From: Camelus ferus
Lineage: Eukaryota
NCBI RefSeq assembly: GCF_009834535.1
Contig: NC_045696.1
Location: 10,294,001-10,358,000, forward strand
DNA: 64,000 bases
Reading direction: 5' to 3'
The notes under the pieces were generated by a model. It worked only from the letters and a program-made list of their open reading frames with translations, searched no databases and was not told where the DNA came from. A program made the translations under genes and the position numbers. Position 1 is the stretch's first letter. Every line of letters begins with the position of its first letter. This document shows, piece by piece, positions 9,841 through 44,310 of this stretch.

Positions 9841-10265
9841 GTGGAGTCCCTGATCCTCAGCATTACTGACATTTCAGGACAGATAATTCTTTGTTGTTCA
9901 GGCTGTCCTGTGCATTGCAGGATGTTGAGCAGCATCCTTGGTCTCTACCCACTAGATGCCAAAAAAATCCTCACTTGTGGCAATCAAAAACGTCTCCGGA
10001 CAAAGGTCCCCTGGGAGACAAAAATCTTTCCTCTGTCCAGTTGAAAGCCAATGGGTACAGTCAGCCAAAGAACGATGCAAGGGTCCAGACAGTTTGCCTC
10101 AGGTGTGGTCAGTGGTCCTCTGCACCAGCATCACCTGGAAACGCATTAAACATACAGATTCTAGCTCCACCCCAGCACCACAGAATTAGACTCTCTAGAG
10201 GGAGTATGTGGAATCTGAATTATTAAGAAGCTCCTCATATTACCCTATAGGGTAAGAATTCCACT
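9841..10265. mobile_element. hAT-Charlie relics (MER20-like ~9841-10040, MER5-like ~10090-10265)
   Basis: gataattctttgttgt..ctgtcctgtgcattgcaggatgttgagcagcatcc..ctctacccactagatgcc (MER20-like); cagcatcacctgg..cagattct..ccccag (MER5-like). Confidence 0.7.
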
Positions 10266-14497: not shown

Positions 14498-15435
14498 GAA
14501 CTACATTTGAGAGTACAAAAAGAGAAGAGGTTACTTTTGCCATGCTTCTTGCAGTAGCTCAGAAAATATTTAATATAACTGTAAAGTAAGAAAATTTATT
14601 TTTTAGTAACTTTTTAAAACTATCACATCTATTTTCCACCCACTCAGAAACACAATTAATGGCTAAGTTTTGGTATGCTAACTAAATTCCTGCCAACTCT
14701 CTACTCTCCCTTGTTTATGGGGAAACTTTCAAAATGCTCAACTCTATTGTGAGAGCACAAAATTATGAAAAAGATGTTCTAAACTAGGAAATGTCACACA
14801 TCTAATCCAATGTACTTTAATTTAAAATTGGTCCTTATGCATAAGACTGTAACACACCCCAGCTAACAAACTTGAGGTAATAATTAGACTTTGTGGAAAA
14901 TAACTGCAGTTCAGATATGTTGATTCTAACCATGACATGAGTTTAAATGGTTAATAATGCTATGTAGAAGGTAAACAGGCTTTAAAAATTCTATGGAGTT
15001 TAAATAAGCAAGATAGCATGATGACATTAAAAAATGCTAATCAACCTACATGTTTGGTTCTGACTCTAAATTTGATCCTTTGGTCACATCTTATACTCAC
15101 AAGGACTGTTGACTGTGCACTATGCAGTCACCTTTTAAAAGGAAAAGAACTATATTTTCAAATGGTGAACTCTTTCTGCTCGTAACTAAACTGAACAAGA
15201 ATGCTTTGGTTTATCACTCATTTGACCTGCTAACTTAAAAGCCTATGAGTTGTCTGAAAGACATCATTAGGACAGTTGTTGAAACTGGAATGCAAAACAG
15301 TACATTAAATAATACTGTAACTATGTTAAATCTGCTGAATTTGCTAACAGTGTGCTATGGTGACGTAAAGGAAAACCCTTGTTTTGAGGAAACAAATACT
15401 TAAGTACTTTGGGGTAAAGGACATAATACATGCAA

Positions 15436-17691
15436 TTATTATTATTTTTTAAATTTTTAAAAATCATACCAAACATTCATATGTTTATTTCTTTCTCTAT
15501 TAAGTTGCCAAGTGCGACGTTCCCACAAAAGGAAAATCAGCCCCAGTGGCAGAGCAATCAGTACAACTTCTAGGGTAAGTCGTAGAGAAACAATGAAACC
15601 TTTCAATTTTCCATCAAACAAAGCAGGGAAAATTTAAACCTGTAATTTAAATTTAATCTCAACACATTAAAAAAAAAAAAGCCAAAGCTTTTCCAAGCAG
15701 TTTAAAGTATAAGCTACTGTTTTAACCCAAACATTTAAAAAGAAAAAAAAAATTCAAAGGCACAATTGAATAGCACCAAGTAACATTCCATATAGTACTT
15801 AGAATCACGAGCAGTTCTGGGCGATGTGAAGTCGAAGTAAAAGGACTCCAGGATTTAGAAACATCAATTTCCTGTAAGAACCAGTGGAGTACTGTGGCTA
15901 TGTTGTGTTTCTGGGACACAAACTAACACAAACTACAAAATAAAGGTTCCACCACACACAGAAAGCAAGGCTAATTGATGTCTGACTCCGCATACATGTA
16001 TCTGGCTCAATTATAAGTTGGAAGTTTGACTTTAAAACCTTTGATCAAAGGAATCATGCAACAGCCAAATAAGTGCAGTGAAAAAGAACAGTTTACCTTC
16101 TAATTTGAAAGTACATAAACAGTGTTAAGTCAGAGTTTCCATAAGAGGCTTAAAAATAAAACATTTGATTTATTGCATATAAGTCCTAACAGGTAAAACA
16201 TATTTACTGTGATGTTAAATTACTTTAAAAACAACACTGAGTAGCTCTAGCCAACAGGCAACTTTGCTTAACTTCTCTCTCTTCAAACCACTGTGGACAC
16301 GTCCACCTAGGGTCAGGCTGGTAACTCTTCACATGGTGACACCAAACTGCAGCATTTCTAAGGCATTTCACAAACAAGCTAATCTACAAACCATCTTTAC
16401 AAGGCATGTCTGAGCTTTACTTGGCATTTAAAGAGACATACTTGGGCTACTAACCTGCTGAGGGTTCTAAGCCGAAGGACACTATAATTTATCACTGTTT
16501 ATTTTCCAACCTTGGCAGTCAGGTAGGACAACCTGCCTCCCTACAAGCTACTTTTAAACGACTGCTCCATACAGACCCAACTACACCTACTCATTCCACA
16601 ACCAGCATGTCTTGGACCCACACACATGCCAAATCACCTCCCAGTCTCTCACCCTCCTTGTCAAAGAAGAAAGAGCCACAAAACCTGCTCCCATCCTCTG
16701 AACAGGAAACACACAATAAAGTTTACCTTTCATAGATCAAGACCAAAGCAGTCTTTGTTTGGGTGTGTGAACACACGTGGGCCCACGAAAACGCACCTAC
16801 TCACCTAAGCTCGCTTCGCTGCACCTTTAAAGTAAGATACAAAGATCAACATACATATGTATTTTTTCCTCAGTCTGTAGAAAGGGGAAACACATCCTTT
16901 TCTGTGTGCAGGGTTGCCCAAAGGACCCACATCCTGATGACAGTTCTATATGCAAGCCAACACAACACAGCTGGCCTCCAGTGATCGTAACTCCGAGGGA
17001 CAAGTTTAAGGCCTGGTTCTGAGACAGTTTCCTGTCCAGGCCTCTCTAATACTCTGCGTTTTTCAAGTTCCAAGAAGACTTCTCTGCACTGCCTAGCAGA
17101 GCATTTAAATGAACCCTTTCTGCCGAGCAGCGCGGCCGCACAGTGGCCACAAACGCCAGTCACGAGAATGATGATGATGTCTCTTGCGTGGTGAGATTGG
17201 AGGATACAGCTTACAACACGCTAAGGTAGGTGGCCTGGAGCGTCAGGAATCAGTTCCTCATCACTGTTATCAACAAGCCGGAGTAGGGTGGGGTCGGGTG
17301 GGGGACAGCAGGGGAAGACCGTGGCATACGAATTCTTGGCACGGGGTACCATAGCTCCGGAAGGGCAGCAGACCCAGGTGCTTGGCCTTATTCTTCCTCC
17401 TCCAACCAGGTCTTGCTTAGTGGCCCTCTTTGTATCCCCCTGGCCCCGACCCATTCCGTGCCTGCCCCCGGGAGGCTCCCACCCTCGCCCAGGGGCAGGT
17501 GCAGGAAGCCACGCTGCGTACCCGGTTCTCCGGCTCCGCAGGCAACTTGGTCTGGAACTGGCAGCGGGTGCCACTGCTGTAGTCTCGCTGAATGAAGACC
17601 TTCCCGGACACCGGCGCTTGCTGCCGCCTCTTGGCAAGGACAAGACGGGCCACGCCACCTCCTCTGCCCTCCAGCTGCTGTCGCACCGCAC
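15436..17691 (-). pseudogene. GOLGA7: GOLGA7 (GCP16) retro-pseudogene: 5' UTR + first coding exon (17632-17522) + ~2 kb non-coding sequence + polyA signal and tail
   Basis: [37 protein letters not shown] matches GOLGA7 residues 1-37 (recalled [37 protein letters not shown]) with ATG>AAG; homology stops at GT (17521-17520); AATAAA on - at 15489-15484; A-rich tail 15458-15436; direct repeat TACATGCAA at 15427-15435 and 17692-17700. Confidence 0.88.
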
Positions 17692-19059
17692 TACATGCAA
17701 AGATTCAGAAGAAAATCATTTGAATGATGTCAGAAGAATGAGAGAGAGAAAACTGGTAAAGCAAATGTGGCAACTCTTGGTAGTTGAACCAATACCAGGA
17801 ACTGCGTACCTCCACACTCCGTATATATGAGAAAAATCCAAGTTCATTAGCTAGTTTACACTTTGCAGCTGAAAGTGTGCTTTATTGATAACTCAGCTGA
17901 TTCCAATTCACCTTCTACGTGTACAGAATCACACTATAAAACTGACATTCTAAAAAGAGAAATGTTACTTGCAGTTTCAGTAACTTACAAAGTCTAGTCA
18001 CTTAACCAAATCATTTAACTATTGGGGCTAAAGTATAGTTACTTATAAGATGCAAACATCAAAATGCCATTTGTGATGAGTGCTTTGGAAAATACAAAGT
18101 GCTATATAAGTAGTTTTTTAAACTGTATTTTTTCCCCTTTTATAGCTATGTTTAAAATGTTGGCAAGAGTTAAAACTTATAGAAACACATCTTTCATACA
18201 GTTCTTTTTTGCTCATTGTTTGCTTTTAAGGAAATCTCACTGAATCAGATTTTAAACCATTTTCTGTGCACCTACGCAGAAGGTAACAGATTATTGTCTA
18301 TGACTCAGAGGTCTTTCTAGGCTAGTACCTATTTCTGGCTCCTTTTAGGAGACATAGTCATAATAAAAAAATTATTGCGAGGCACGGTGCAAAGTGGTTT
18401 ACATACATTGTATAAGTCTCACAAAAACTCAGTGATTTTAATGCCATTATTATTTCATCATAAGTAAAATGGAGAAAACAATAGCACTTTCTCACAGGGC
18501 TGCTGTAAGCATTAAGAGACTATATAGAGAGCATTTATTTAGCACAGTTTCTGGCAAAAAGTGCTAAATACACACTTACCATTTGCTGGTACCCTCATTT
18601 ATATAATATAACAGAAAAAAGCAAGCGTAAGAAACAGGATTTTCAACTCAGGTCTGACTCCTCAAGTTTCTGCCACCTTCTTTTTTGTTTTTAATTATCC
18701 CCCCGTACAGGAGGGGGAAATAGCAAATTCCCAAGACAGTGGCTTAACTTAAAGTCAGTAAACACATAATTTGATTTTGTCCTCGACCGTCCTCACTCCT
18801 CACCAACGCCTGACTAAGCGAGCTGCTCACTAAGTACTTGAACTAATGAAAGAGTAGGCTTCTAGCCTGGGTTACCTAGATCTTTCTGGATTAAGTGGAA
18901 CTTTCATGTTTCTGAGCTGGTGTCCATGGCTGCAGCCCCTAAGAGGTTGTTCAAGTAACGTTTGGGGAAACGGACTCGCCTTCCCCTCCCCTCGGCATCG
19001 CCCTCGGAAGCCTTAGGGCTTCAAAGGTCCCAACCTACACTCCCCAAGGTCTACAATAA

Positions 19060-19625
19060 GCTCTACCCGTCACTGCTCCGGCCATGACAACATTTTCTTC
19101 CACTCGGCTGGTCCCGCCTCCCTCCCGGAAGGCGCACGCGCGCCGCGGGGCCCTGCGCGCGCAGCCCTTCCCGGCGAACTACATCGCCCAGAATCCCAAT
19201 CGACCGAACCATCTCGGGCTCGAGGTGGGGGAGGAGGCGGAGGCGGAGCAGATTGCCCGGGGCGGGGCGTAGCCTCCCGAAATGTCCTGCTTGTGTCTTC
19301 TTGGGAAGAGTTCGTTTTAAGCGAGATCCTGGGGTTCCTAGGTAAGGTAGGACATATGTCCCGATTAGGTATAATAGTGCCCTCCGCACCCCCCGAGAGA
19401 TCACTCAGTGCCAAACGGCGGATGGTCTAGTCCAGCGGAGACACTGGTTACCGGCCTGGGCGGAATCACCACGGGAGTGAAGGGCAGACAGCGCACGCAT
19501 GCGCAGAGGCTCAGCATGGGGGCGGGAGCCGCTGAGCCCCTTCCCAATGTACGAGAAGGTGAGTAGGGGGCGGGACAGGGCGTTCCTGGAGTTGGGACTG
19601 ACCGCTCCCCTCAACGGCCGCAGTT
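19060..19625 (+). promoter_or_regulatory. DNAJC28: CpG-island promoter and non-coding first exon(s) of DNAJC28
   Basis: CpG-dense; ETS CCGGAAG 19125-19131, ZNF143/SBS-like ACTACATCGCCCAGAATCCC 19178-19197, CCAAT 19196-19200, GC box near 19260, NRF1-like CGCATGCGCA 19496-19505; donor-like AG|GTAAGG (after 19341) and AG|GTGAGT (after 19558). Confidence 0.85.
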
Positions 19626-20943: not shown

Positions 20944-21081
20944 ATATTAGAAAGAACTGCCCCTTACTGTATGTATAATTTTGTCCTTATTGCTGAAAAT
21001 ATGAGTTTCGCTGATAGTACGACATTCTTCACCCTATATTTGTTTCATTTTATAGATCATTGCTAGGAAGAACTCGGTATA

Positions 21082-22245
21082 ATGATGAACACAATGTATG
21101 TGATGATGGCTCAGATCTTAAGATCTCATCTGATAAATGCTTCACTGATTCCTAATCAAATGAAAATGGGTTCATATCTTGGTGTCATTAGAATTAGAAT
21201 GATGTCAACTCATAAATCCAAAAAGAAGATGAGAGAGTATTATAGGCTGCTGAATCTGGATGAAGGATGCTCTGCAGATGATGTCAGGGAATCTTTTCGT
21301 AAGCTTGCCAAGCGATACCATCCAGATGGTGGCTCTAGTACTGCTGATTCTGCAACATTTATAAGGATTGAAGAAGCTTATAGGAAGGTGCTTTCCCACG
21401 TGATAGAACAAACAAATGCCAGAAAGAGTAAAGTTGAAGAAGCAGAAGAAGAAGAAGAAAAATTTAAATATAAAACACCCCAACACCGGCATTATTTAAG
21501 TTTTGAAGGTATTGGTTTTGGGACTCCAAGCCAACGAGAGAAGCAGTATAGGCAATTTAGAGCAGACCGTGCAACTGAGCAAGTGATGGAATACCAAAAG
21601 CAGAAGCTACAAAGCCAGTATTTCACTGACAGTATAACTGTTAAAGATGTAAGACACAGTAGAGAACAAAAGATAACTCAAGCAATAGAGCGTTTAGTGG
21701 AGGATCTCATTCAGGAATCAATGGCAAAAGGAGACTTTGACAATCTCAGTGGGAAAGGAAAACCTCTAAAAAAATTTTCTGGCTGTTCATATATTGATCC
21801 CATGACTCACAACCTAAATAGAATATTGATAGATAATGGATATCAACCAGAGTGGATCCTAATGCAAAAGGAAATAAAGGATACTATTGATCAACTCAGA
21901 GAGGCAATTTTAGTGTCGAGGAAAAAACTTGGGAATCCAATGACACCAACTGAACAGAAACAGTGGAACCAAGTTTGTGAGCAGTTTCAAGAAAACATCA
22001 GAAAACTAAACAAGCGAATTAATGATTTTAATTTAATTGTTCCTCTCCTGACCAGGCAAAAAGTTCATTTCGATGCTCATAAAGAAATTGCCAGAGCCCA
22101 GGAAATATATGAGACCCTTATGAAAACAAAAGAAGTCACAGATAAAAACCTGAATAACGTTGATCAGGGAGAAGGGGAGAAAACACCTGGAGTTAAGACA
22201 GGTTTTTTTAACTGGATAAATGTGTGGAAACTTATTAAAATATGA
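21082..22245 (+). CDS. DNAJC28: DnaJ homolog subfamily C member 28, single coding exon, 387 aa
   Basis: Intact ORF; J domain (YYRLLNL...YHPD...[11 protein letters not shown]) and DUF1992-type motif ([25 protein letters not shown]...NGYQPEWI); acceptor ttttatAG ends at 21055; synteny between GART and TMEM50B. Confidence 0.98.
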
Positions 22246-35039: not shown

Positions 35040-35950
35040 TGGGGGGCTCGCGACCAACGCCGCTGGGCCTAAAGGCAAAGAGAGCCGTTGCCCTCTGGGT
35101 CTTGGGCTCCCCACGCATGTGATCTCACAGATGCTGCACCTGAAGTCCTTGAGCAGAAATGCATTGGTGCTGCCGCCCGGAAAATAACACGAGGGGTGAG
35201 CTCTCTATGGGGCCGCGAATCATAAGGTGCGGAGTCCGGCCGTAGGGTCCCAGAAGCTCGCAGAATCTCCACACCCTCGCCCCTCCCACTGGCGTAATTG
35301 CCCCGCCCCTCTTGCCCCGCCCCAGCCAGCCCCGCCCCCCGCCGGCCACTTGCTGCGTCCCGATTGGTTGCTGCGGTGCGCACGGCGCCGCGCTCCGCCC
35401 CGCCGGCGCCCTCGCTTCGCACCCGCCGCCCACTCCCGGCTCCCGGGGGCTGAGGTGGAGCGGAGGACGCCGGCCCGGTAGCGGCGCAGTTGCCTCCTCC
35501 TCTGCGCGCGCGCCTGGGTTCGGCGTGGGCGTCGGGGAAGCCGGGTGAGTGCGGGCGGCCGGTTTCGGGGCTCGCGCCCACCGCCCGCGCGTGAGGAGGC
35601 GCCCCTGGCCGACCTGGCCCGGCCTGCGAGGTGCGGCGGCGCCCGGCCCGGCCTCTCTCTTGCGCGGCGCCGCTGGGCGGAGCGGGCCGGCGGAGCTTCT
35701 GGGCGGCCTGCGGGGCGGGGGCCTCCGCCGCCCCCTCCGCACCTGCCAGCGTCCCCTCAGGCGACCGTGGCCCGCACTTGGCCCAGGCGGGACGCAAGCC
35801 GCGTTATCTCGGCGTCTAATTGCTTCCCGGGGTGGTCTGGAAAGGTTTCCATCTCGAGCCTGTCAGCTTCCCGGGGCGACAGGCGGGCGGGGAGAGACGG
35901 TGTGCGGTCCGTGAGGCGTGTGGGGGCCACTCAAGTATTTCGTCCTCCCT
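35040..35950 (+). promoter_or_regulatory. TMEM50B: CpG-island promoter and non-coding exon 1 of TMEM50B (donor after 35544)
   Basis: Very GC/CpG-rich; clustered GC boxes 35300-35345; inverted CCAAT near 35363; CGG|GTGAGT donor at 35545; next recognisable exon downstream is the TMEM50B start-codon exon. Confidence 0.85.
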
Positions 35951-36280
35951 CCCGTCTGTTCTGAACCATCGATGGGAATGTCAGTGTTTAGTGGACTTTC
36001 CCGACTCTGTTTATGAGAGTCAGGTACCGAGGTGGGAAGAGGAAGTGAAAGTGGATCAACATTCTTTCGGGAATTAATCATAAAGTGTTTGGTGTCCTTT
36101 TAGACAAGGAGCAGCAGAGAGTTGCTCATGTAGCAAAGGTAGTTGTTTTCGGGAAGACCATTTTGGTTTTTAACCTGTAAATTGGCTTCCGAGTTAATCA
36201 CTGGAAGGTGCTTTAATCTGAAAGGTAAATCTGTGACCTTTTAAAGCCAAAGCAGTGATGTGCTCGCTCCCTTACCCCTG

Positions 36281-43289: not shown

Positions 43290-44310
43290 CATCATCTTTC
43301 ACTTGGATTATTTCAGCAACTTTTTAACTGGCCTCTCTCCTTCCGCTCAGCCCTGCAGTCTGTTTTCCGCACAGTAGCCGAAAGGATCCTCTTAAACATT
43401 AAGTCACTCTGCTCAGACTCTTAGGCCTCCCTATTTTAATCAGTAAAAACTAAGGTTCTTACAGTAGCTCATGAGGCTCTGTAATTATTCTTCCTTGCCC
43501 CTGTCCCCTCTCTGACCTTGTTTTCTCCTACTTTTCCCTCTCACCCACTCCACTACAGCCCCCCTGGCTTCCATGTTGCTCCTTGAATACCTGGTGCTGC
43601 CCTGGGGCCTTTGCCCTGCTGTTCTCTCTGGCAGATGCCCAGGGGCTCTCTCCCCACCTTCAAGTCTTTGCTGGTGTCATCTTCTCAAGGGGGCCTACCC
43701 TGACATTTCAGCTGTCCCTGCTATCACCTGTACTTCCAGTGCCCCTTACTCTGCTTTGTTTTTCCCCTATGGCATTTATCACTGACATGGTATATTACTA
43801 ACTAACTAACTAACTTACTTACTTCCTCCCTCCCTCTTCTCTTTCCTTTTCTTTTCTTTTCTTTTCTTTTCTTTTCTTTTCTTTTCTTTTCCTTCCTTCC
43901 TTCCTTCCTTTCTCTTCCTTCCTTCCTTCCTTTCTTCCTTTCTTCTTCCTTTCTTTCTTCCTTTCTTTCTTTCTTTCTTTCTTTCTTTCCTTTCCTTTCC
44001 TTTCCTTTTCTTTTCTTTCTTTCTTCTCTTTTCTTCTCTTTTCTTTTCTTCTCTTTTCTTCTCTTTTCTTTTCTTCTCTTTTCTTTTCTTTTCTTTTCTT
44101 TTCTTTTCTTTTCTTTTCTTTTCTTTTCTTTCTTTCTTTTCTTTCTTTCCCTTCTTAACTTATTTTAAAAATTATGTTTATTCTGCCTCCCCACATCCCC
44201 CAAAGCTTCACATGACCAGTGCCTTTGATGTGTTCATTGTTGTATCTTAAGTGTCCACAGCAGTCCCTGGCATGTAGCAGGCACTCTGTAAATAAATGTT
44301 GAATGAACAA
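43290..44310. mobile_element. L2 remnant enclosing a polypyrimidine microsatellite
   Basis: ggcctctctccttcc..cagtctgtt..cacagtagcc..gatcctcttaaa; gggcctttgccctgctgtt; terminal ctggcatgtagcaggcactc..aaatgttgaatgaa. Confidence 0.7.
43797..44155 (+). repeat. Compound (ACTA)n/(ACTT)n/(TTTTC)n/(TTCC)n/(TTTC)n repeat with ~330 nt of pure pyrimidine
   Basis: Directly visible. Confidence 0.97.

Follow-up and report, generated by a model that had tools for sequence, protein, structure and literature searches.

A semi-processed GOLGA7 retropseudogene in Camelus ferus, very probably copied from an RNA polyadenylated within an intron

Semi-processed (partially processed) pseudogenes are an established class of gene copy (PMC3449122, PMC4151081), of which GENCODE counts eight in human (PMC3491395), and copies made from intronically polyadenylated RNA in particular are already described in print (PMC4151081). 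The copy considered here derives from GOLGA7 and lies on the minus strand of a 64,000-nucleotide stretch of the Camelus ferus genome (NCBI RefSeq assembly GCF_009834535.1, contig NC_045696.1, positions 10,294,001 to 10,358,000), hereafter the window, by which we mean the whole stretch of DNA that was analysed. Coordinates are positions in this 64-kb window, which belongs to contig C1, unless another contig is named. An earlier interpretation of the same DNA, made from its letters only and referred to below as the sequence-only reading, had taken the copy for a relic of a GOLGA7 RNA terminated at a polyadenylation (polyA) site inside an intron. Comparison with the parental gene in the same genome supports that mechanism through colinearity with the parent, an AATAAA that the parent shares and the lack of an adenosine run at the parental breakpoint, and a semi-processed retrocopy of an intronically polyadenylated GOLGA7 RNA is, very probably, the best explanation of the locus.

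The closest described case is a semi-processed insertion of TMF1 into CYBB in human, made from an RNA that terminated past an alternative polyA signal of its intron 8 (Kazazian 2014, PMC4151081). As that report presents it, the TMF1 insert resembles the GOLGA7 copy in combining spliced upstream exons with an unspliced downstream intron, in ending after an intronic polyA signal and in carrying a poly(A) tail; in addition, part of the insert became a new exon at the landing site, as predicted gene models propose for the GOLGA7 copy. The TMF1 insertion, however, was a new somatic or early-embryonic event with a 100-bp tail, contained exons 1-8 and two retained introns, and was exonised in reverse orientation at cryptic sites, whereas the GOLGA7 copy would be millions of years old, holds two exons and part of an intron, and would be used as an exon in sense orientation through its own inherited donor.

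Two further systems bear on the comparison. The rodent preproinsulin I gene (Ins1), the classic semi-processed retrogene, likewise arose from an incompletely processed pre-mRNA that had lost one intron but not another; it retained a whole intron, a promoter and a complete coding region and is functional, according to the accounts in PMC3449122 and PMC4151081. In the GOLGA7 copy, by contrast, the intron appears cut short by polyadenylation, and the copy has no promoter and only 37 codons. Retrocopies that use bidirectional promoters and are extended by new exons are also documented (PMC4772013, PMC5470649). Those treated by Carelli et al. 2016 (PMC4772013) include copies that, like this one, lie head-to-head with a neighbour, less than 2 kb from its CpG promoter (here a probable one), and acquired new 5' exons from the flanks, as the gene models predict here; as described there, they are intronless and gained their splice sites anew, whereas the GOLGA7 copy brought a ready-made 5' splice site with it. 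In a literature search, no paper combining 'intronic polyadenylation' with 'retrocop...' was found, and none combining 'GOLGA7' with 'intronic polyadenylation'; among the 20 papers listed of 1,162 that a broader search retrieved, none brought intronic polyadenylation together with a term for retroposition.

The insert occupies 17691-15436 on the minus strand (2,256 nt) and, with its flanking direct repeats, spans 17700-15427. Read along that strand, it begins behind a 5' target-site duplication, TTGCATGTA (17692..17700), where homology to the parent also begins and which matches the 3' duplication, TTGCATGTA (15427..15435), exactly over 9 bp (15435-15427). A GC-rich leader of 59 nt (17691-17633) precedes codons that match GOLGA7 residues 1-37 (17632-17522; PDB chains 9oa6_B, E=4e-17, and 8hf3_B, E=1e-16), and the protein-level homology ends at CGG|GTACGC, the bar marking the splice junction. 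The GT of this site (17520..17521) is the inherited 5' splice site of GOLGA7 exon 2, and its hexamer is identical in the parent. After GTACGC come about 2.07 kb without a long reading frame, GC content declines from 0.65 to 0.27 along the insert, and the far end carries an AATAAA (15484..15489) followed by a decayed poly(A) tail of 15 nt, AAAAAATAATAATAA (15436..15450), which is unmatched in the parent. The leader, the 37 codons, the stop at a GT, the fading GC content, the AATAAA, the A-rich tail and the direct repeats had all been described by the sequence-only reading, and each is present where it had been placed.

That reading had also failed to find later GOLGA7 peptides, and this holds for the whole 64-kb window: tblastn with P0078 (canonical residues 1-88) and P0015 (canonical residues 37-137) returned a single match below E=1, covering residues 2-38 at 17629-17519. 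Because only 37 of the 137 GOLGA7 codons are retained and the former start codon (17632-17630) now reads AAG, not ATG, the copy is incapable of making GOLGA7.

The parent was located by searching the camel's own genome with the 2,256-nt insert, which gave five matches: the copy itself, three adjoining pieces at C26:2650994-2653459 on the minus strand, and an 84-nt match of 77% identity on C11. The last falls in a paralogue that likewise carries an Erf4 domain. The C26 locus (G000:C26), on a different contig from the copy, is a five-exon GOLGA7 gene with introns. Its non-coding exon 1 covers at least C26:2653459 to 2653421 and is followed by an intron 1 of 214 nt (C26:2653420-2653207; GTTCGT...CCCGCAG); exon 2 (C26:2653206-2653074) encodes residues 1-37 from an ATG at 2653184, and intron 2 (C26:2653073-2648249; GTACGC...ATCCAG) is 4,825 nt long. 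Exon 3, which begins IDRQQFEETV and encodes residues 38-88, lies at C26:2648248-2648096, exon 4 (residues 89-122) at about C26:2642299-2642198 and the last coding exon (residues 123-137) at C26:2641163-2641119.

Alignment of copy and parent by blastn, the insert being extended by 1 kb in both directions, shows that one parental intron is missing and that the next is kept. Positions 17694-17655 match C26:2653459-2653421 at 95% identity (in the exon 1 part, 38 of 39 aligned bases are identical), positions 17655-16899 match C26:2653207-2652389 at 85% (92.4% ungapped), and positions 16834-15449 match C26:2652384-2650994 at 92% (93.0% ungapped). Where the parent reads GAGGCGG|GTTCGT...CCCGCAG|CGCGGCC, the copy reads GAGGTGG|CGTGGCC, so that the 214-nt intron of the 5' untranslated region (5'UTR), with its GT...AG borders, is exactly absent and exon 1 is joined straight to exon 2. 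The template was a spliced RNA. Open reading frames (ORFs) on contigs of other mammals (for example P0128, P0129 and P0131) run across the same 3' end of intron 1 into the ATG, and the 214-nt segment is therefore ancestral in the parent and not a later insertion there.

The copy thus consists of 37 nt of exon 1 (5'UTR; 17655..17691), 133 nt of exon 2 (17522..17654; 22 nt of 5'UTR and codons 1-37, matched in both protein and DNA) and the first part of intron 2 (15451..17521), whose 2,071 nt correspond to 2,080 nt of the parent and are colinear with C26:2653073-2650994. The exon 2 donor is unspliced in the copy, in the same sequence context as in the parent, and colinearity continues from it for 2,080 nt into the intron. 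This corrects the sequence-only reading, which had proposed exon 1 plus intron 1: a first coding exon followed by its unspliced intron was seen correctly, but the transcript represented is exon 1, exon 2 and part of intron 2. In particular, the leader is not part of one unspliced exon 1, since its first 37 nt form a separate upstream non-coding exon from which a 214-nt intron was spliced out, and that removal strengthens the case for an RNA origin. Two length differences interrupt the alignment. A 58-nt GC-rich piece occurs in the parent only (C26 about 2652985-2652928), and a 64-nt piece occurs in the copy only (about 16898-16835 on the minus strand) and is absent from the parental intron; either difference may have arisen in the copy or in the parent.

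The same alignment bears on two alternatives to a single retroposed transcript. One is that the GOLGA7 5' region was duplicated as DNA and a deletion then mimicked intron removal; retention of intron sequence, as seen in DNA duplicates, speaks for it. Yet the missing 214 nt have exact GT...AG borders, homology begins just 37 nt before the intron so that no promoter or upstream sequence was copied, and the copy lies on another contig, with an A-rich tail behind an AATAAA and a 9-bp duplication. Homology to the parent stops at 17694 and 15449, at the direct repeats, and no match was found in the 1-kb flanks, although continuation past the repeats is what a duplication at the DNA level had been expected to leave. 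We regard segmental duplication as refuted by the exact intron loss together with the tail and the target-site duplication, and give it a negligible chance. The other alternative is a chimera, in which the reverse transcriptase changed templates after the GOLGA7 exons and continued on an unrelated RNA or on the 3'UTR of GOLGA7. The sequence-only reading had held that this would show as a 2-kb segment mapping to another gene or to that 3'UTR; the segment maps instead colinearly to the intron behind the first coding exon, at 92-93% ungapped identity, and the whole insert is colinear with one parental stretch of 2.47 kb, whereas some 10 kb separate what was copied from the last coding exon and the 3'UTR. 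The own-genome search and the alignment refute a chimera, nothing was found in its favour, and its probability is vanishingly small.

A multi-exon parent elsewhere in the genome, removal of intron 1 at its splice sites, partial retention of intron 2, a non-encoded A-rich tail (short and decayed) and an exact 9-bp duplication at the limits of homology are all found, and, judged from its sequence, the copy is a semi-processed (partially processed) retropseudogene.

The remaining question is what ended the template inside intron 2. The breakpoint corresponds to intron position 2080, which is 35 nt after the parent's own AATAAA at intron position 2040 and 2.7 kb short of exon 3 (IDRQQFEETV...); in the copy, 33 nt separate the AATAAA from the tail. 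Parental intron 2 holds only three AATAAA and four ATTAAA hexamers in its 4,825 nt, and just 1.9% of its positions have an AATAAA 10-40 nt upstream (4.5% counting ATTAAA). Across the breakpoint the parent reads ...TTTTAAAACATTAAAG|ACACACACATTTGTACTCTTTAATTTGGG (ACACAC... after the break), and T/GT-rich sequence follows. No run of six or more A is present there: the longest A run at the breakpoint is 4, and the only longer one of that class in the intron, an A8, lies 600 nt downstream. With the hexamer placed 10-40 nt ahead of the end point in copy and parent alike and no such A-run at the breakpoint, the 3' end agrees with cleavage and polyadenylation inside the intron and disagrees with priming on a genomic A-run, and we infer that regular cleavage and polyadenylation made it.

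Several observations weigh against this interpretation. The parental breakpoint is mildly A-rich (AAAACATTAAA), with 8 of 11 bases being A; 33-35 nt is at the long end of the usual distance between hexamer and cleavage site; the target site, considered below, departs from the L1 endonuclease consensus; and GOLGA7 is absent from the readable intronic-polyA supplements of PMC5928244 and PMC10960005. The first and third of these, together with the short and impure tail, would suit a template that was a partly spliced pre-mRNA or retained-intron RNA and was never cleaved at this site, reverse transcription having been primed internally on AAAACATTAAA and the tail having grown later or by slippage. 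On this alternative, an AATAAA would stand 35 nt upstream in both copy and parent by chance (1.9%), a breakpoint with an A-run of no more than 4 would have been used while the intron's A8 was left unused, and 15 A-rich nucleotides would have arisen in the copy where the parent reads GACACACAC. Moreover, L1 retroposition needs a 3' poly(A). We therefore consider internal priming very improbable and retain cleavage at the intronic site as the preferred account of the 3' end.

In favour of intronic polyadenylation of this gene, both human and mouse GOLGA7 are tabulated with an annotated isoform arising by intronic alternative polyadenylation (PMC11541570, supplement files 2-4; the intron is unnamed there), with a truncation ratio of 0.38-0.54 in two human cell lines and of 0.01-0.03 in mouse cells (PMC11541570). 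The exon 2 donor takes part in alternative processing in other mammals, as shown by P0141 (UniRef, human/Boreoeutheria, 86 aa), a GOLGA7 isoform that joins ...ENR to VLKKVSKYIQ... and skips the exon encoding residues 38-88. A possible source of support was considered and set aside. A protein search with a 100-aa ORF of parental exon 2 and intron as query gave 115 hits among 123 candidates, and 24 of the 28 sequences examined run from ENR into sequence other than exon 3; these are short contigs that may be DNA or RNA, and 11 of the 24 intron-reading ORFs also cross the end of intron 1 and are therefore uninformative on polyadenylation. Sequencing runs that share words with the parental stretch number 24 in a listing, of which one is recorded as RNA, with 0.35 of the words of that stretch, 13 are presumed RNA and 5 are raw single-cell RNA runs, but a listing of this kind is not evidence of transcription.

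Consensus sites for the L1 endonuclease read 5'-TTTT/AA-3' on the primed strand. The nick implied by the duplication is GCAA/AGAT, which bears out a caveat about a non-canonical L1 target that had accompanied the original proposal. From the tail and the duplication only, we infer that the insertion was mediated by L1. The flanking DNA had been taken for one interrupted 3' end of an old L1M element. Two other loci in the genome, L013 and L014, match the downstream flank with 70% identity over 166-185 nt. At L013, the 150 nt before the match align to the upstream flank of the window with a score of 24 (shuffled sequences: mean 11.7, sd 2.1, 0/500 reaching it), with about 17 nt of L013 unmatched where the two flanks join; at L014, the corresponding 150 nt do not align to the upstream flank (score 12, reached by 188/500 shuffles). 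A genome search with the upstream 600 nt matched only itself, no second match to the flank sequence was found inside the window, and no L1 domain, ORF2 included, was detected in 31 ORFs from the flanks and the two paralogous copies. Thus the upstream and the downstream flank most likely belonged to a single old dispersed repeat, as L013 indicates, although L014 disagrees; its assignment to L1M is tentative.

Taken together, these observations suggest the following course of events. A GOLGA7 transcript would have begun at or near the promoter, its 214-nt 5'UTR intron would have been spliced out and the next intron left unspliced, and cleavage and polyadenylation would have followed about 35 nt past the AATAAA that lies 2,040 nt into intron 2. 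The resulting RNA would be an intronic-polyadenylation isoform with a composite terminal exon. Reverse transcription and insertion, presumably by LINE-1 (L1) proteins, would then have placed it in an old dispersed repeat between GART and DNAJC28 and created the 9-bp duplication; lying head-to-head with DNAJC28 near a CpG island and with an intact 5' splice site, the copy would later have been exonised, as predicted gene models propose. Of this course, sequence comparison shows that the template was RNA, that the copy is colinear with exon 1, exon 2 and intron 2, and that it ends behind a conserved AATAAA.

The time of insertion can be estimated from divergence. At non-CpG sites the Kimura distance between copy and parent is 0.049 over 653 sites in the 5' segment and 0.061 over 1,330 sites in the 3' segment. 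If neutral substitution in mammals proceeds at 1-2.2e-9 per site per year, the copy would be about 13-28 million years old. Of the 42 parental CpG dinucleotides in the part derived from a CpG island, 13 appear as TG or CA in the copy, whereas the reverse comparison gives 4 of 34. Such an asymmetry is expected if the copy became methylated once outside the island; in the AT-rich part, CpG decay is symmetric (7/17 vs 7/15). Compared with GOLGA7 of other mammals, the copy has M1K, P3R, F29L and L33P, and copy and parent differ at nine places over the 37 codons, too few for a ratio of nonsynonymous to synonymous rates (dN/dS). The parent itself has changed at residue 6 (A6S): codon 6 of camel GOLGA7 (C26:2653169-2653167) encodes Ser (TCG), whereas the copy has GCG and, like the proteins of other mammals, Ala, so that at this residue the pseudogene appears to preserve the older state.

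The copy may thus be read as the datable record of a GOLGA7 RNA isoform ending inside an intron. If so, cells contributing to the germ line already made use of a polyA signal in intron 2 more than 10 million years ago, and the parent still carries that signal. Half-spliced copies are rare, and each provides independent evidence that products of intronic polyadenylation can be stable and abundant enough for retroposition. Current understanding is unchanged by this one, which adds a clean and well-anchored example.

A second aspect of the locus is its possible reuse as an exon. Among the sequences examined in the intron-ORF protein search, two camel entries, P0156 and P0161, carry the copy's own substitutions. 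P0156 is a RefSeq prediction, 'uncharacterized protein LOC105070226 isoform X3' of Camelus bactrianus, and has four cluster mates (P0195-P0198), the cluster covering isoforms X2 to X5 from two annotation releases. All five proteins are 100% identical to the window on three shared exons and diverge after ENR. By tblastn, residues 1-49 are encoded by a first coding exon at 19067..19212 on the minus strand (100%; ATG at 19212-19210, donor GG|GTAGAG), and residues 50-69 by a second exon at 18876..18938 (100%; borders cttag|G and CTAG|GTAACC). Residues 70-126 correspond to a 169-nt internal coding exon derived from the retrocopy (17522..17690; 100%; catgtAG|TGCGG and AACCGG|GTACGC). Two alternative last coding exons fall in the window on the same strand, one encoding VMLVQRTTDHT and a stop (10102..10134; acceptor tttccag|GTG) and the other VTTRD and a stop (4827-4813; with a good acceptor).

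In these models, the acceptor AG of the retrocopy exon (17692-17691) straddles the insertion junction, taking one base from the end of the target-site duplication and one from the start of the insert. A pyrimidine-rich part of the old repeat lies ahead of it, with 68% pyrimidines over the 50 nt that precede the acceptor region. The donor is the inherited donor of GOLGA7 exon 2, used in 5/5 RefSeq isoforms, and the reading frame is that of GOLGA7, prolonged upstream across the former 5'UTR. The unusual feature is a splice donor that arrived with the insert, since splicing had not taken place at that junction in the template; the predicted models would thus illustrate a route by which a retrocopy can turn into an exon without evolving a donor of its own. 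At about 19000-19600, the sequence around the first exon forms a CpG-rich island with a GC content of 0.60-0.64 and GC-box-like motifs; a DNAJC28-like ORF lies 1.5-2 kb downstream of it, and the copy is about 1.4 kb away. The position of the island suggests that it is probably the DNAJC28 promoter, and the LOC105070226 models resemble divergent transcription with a promoter in common. On these models, Camelus bactrianus would use the first 169 nt of the copy as an internal exon in LOC105070226, a divergent transcript with several isoforms.

It may instead be that LOC105070226 exists only as a computation and that the copy is silent DNA, a possibility that we rate as the lesser one but take seriously. 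Indeed, the LOC105070226 proteins are predictions (XP_ entries), all five cluster members coming from NCBI/UniRef and none from Logan; no equivalent non-camel model occurs among the 115 hits, only the two Camelus entries of the 28 sequences examined having the copy's residues; and an ORF crossing a former 5'UTR and a GC-rich first exon is of a kind that is often spurious. The single ab initio model uses a different splice. Against an artefact, the same three exons and the same donor recur in all five isoforms, which come from two annotation releases and differ in their downstream exons, two of which lie in the window; all six splice borders checked are canonical AG/GT; and retrocopies are documented to gain transcription from a head-to-head position less than 2 kb from a CpG island (PMC4772013, PMC5470649). 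The ab initio model is P0161, from Camelus ferus, which joins ...ENR to an 'exon' at 17346-17224 (minus strand) in the intron-derived part, in conflict with the five RefSeq isoforms; its splice looks like a prediction artefact.

If exonisation is accepted, it is tempting to go further, although we think the following unlikely to prove correct. Retroposition might have moved a 'splice or terminate' module, consisting of a 5' splice site and an intronic AATAAA, to the side of a bidirectional CpG promoter and so seeded LOC105070226 as a camel-lineage gene, with the GOLGA7 5'UTR and exon 2 as its central coding exon in the GOLGA7 frame and with isoforms arising from the inherited donor and new acceptors 7-13 kb away. 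The LOC105070226 product would then carry the first 36 GOLGA7 residues after the lost start codon.

The window has some other features. At 35072-35961 and 43805-44247, open frames of unusual length (up to 245 aa) occur in several reading frames of either strand, none with a Pfam match; both places are probably compositionally biased or repetitive DNA. The 3' part of a GART-like gene is represented by an ORF with a Formyl_trans_N domain at 329-736 on the plus strand. The DNAJC28-like ORF, at 21067-22242 on the plus strand, encodes 392 aa with DnaJ and DJC28_CD domains, apparently in a single coding exon.

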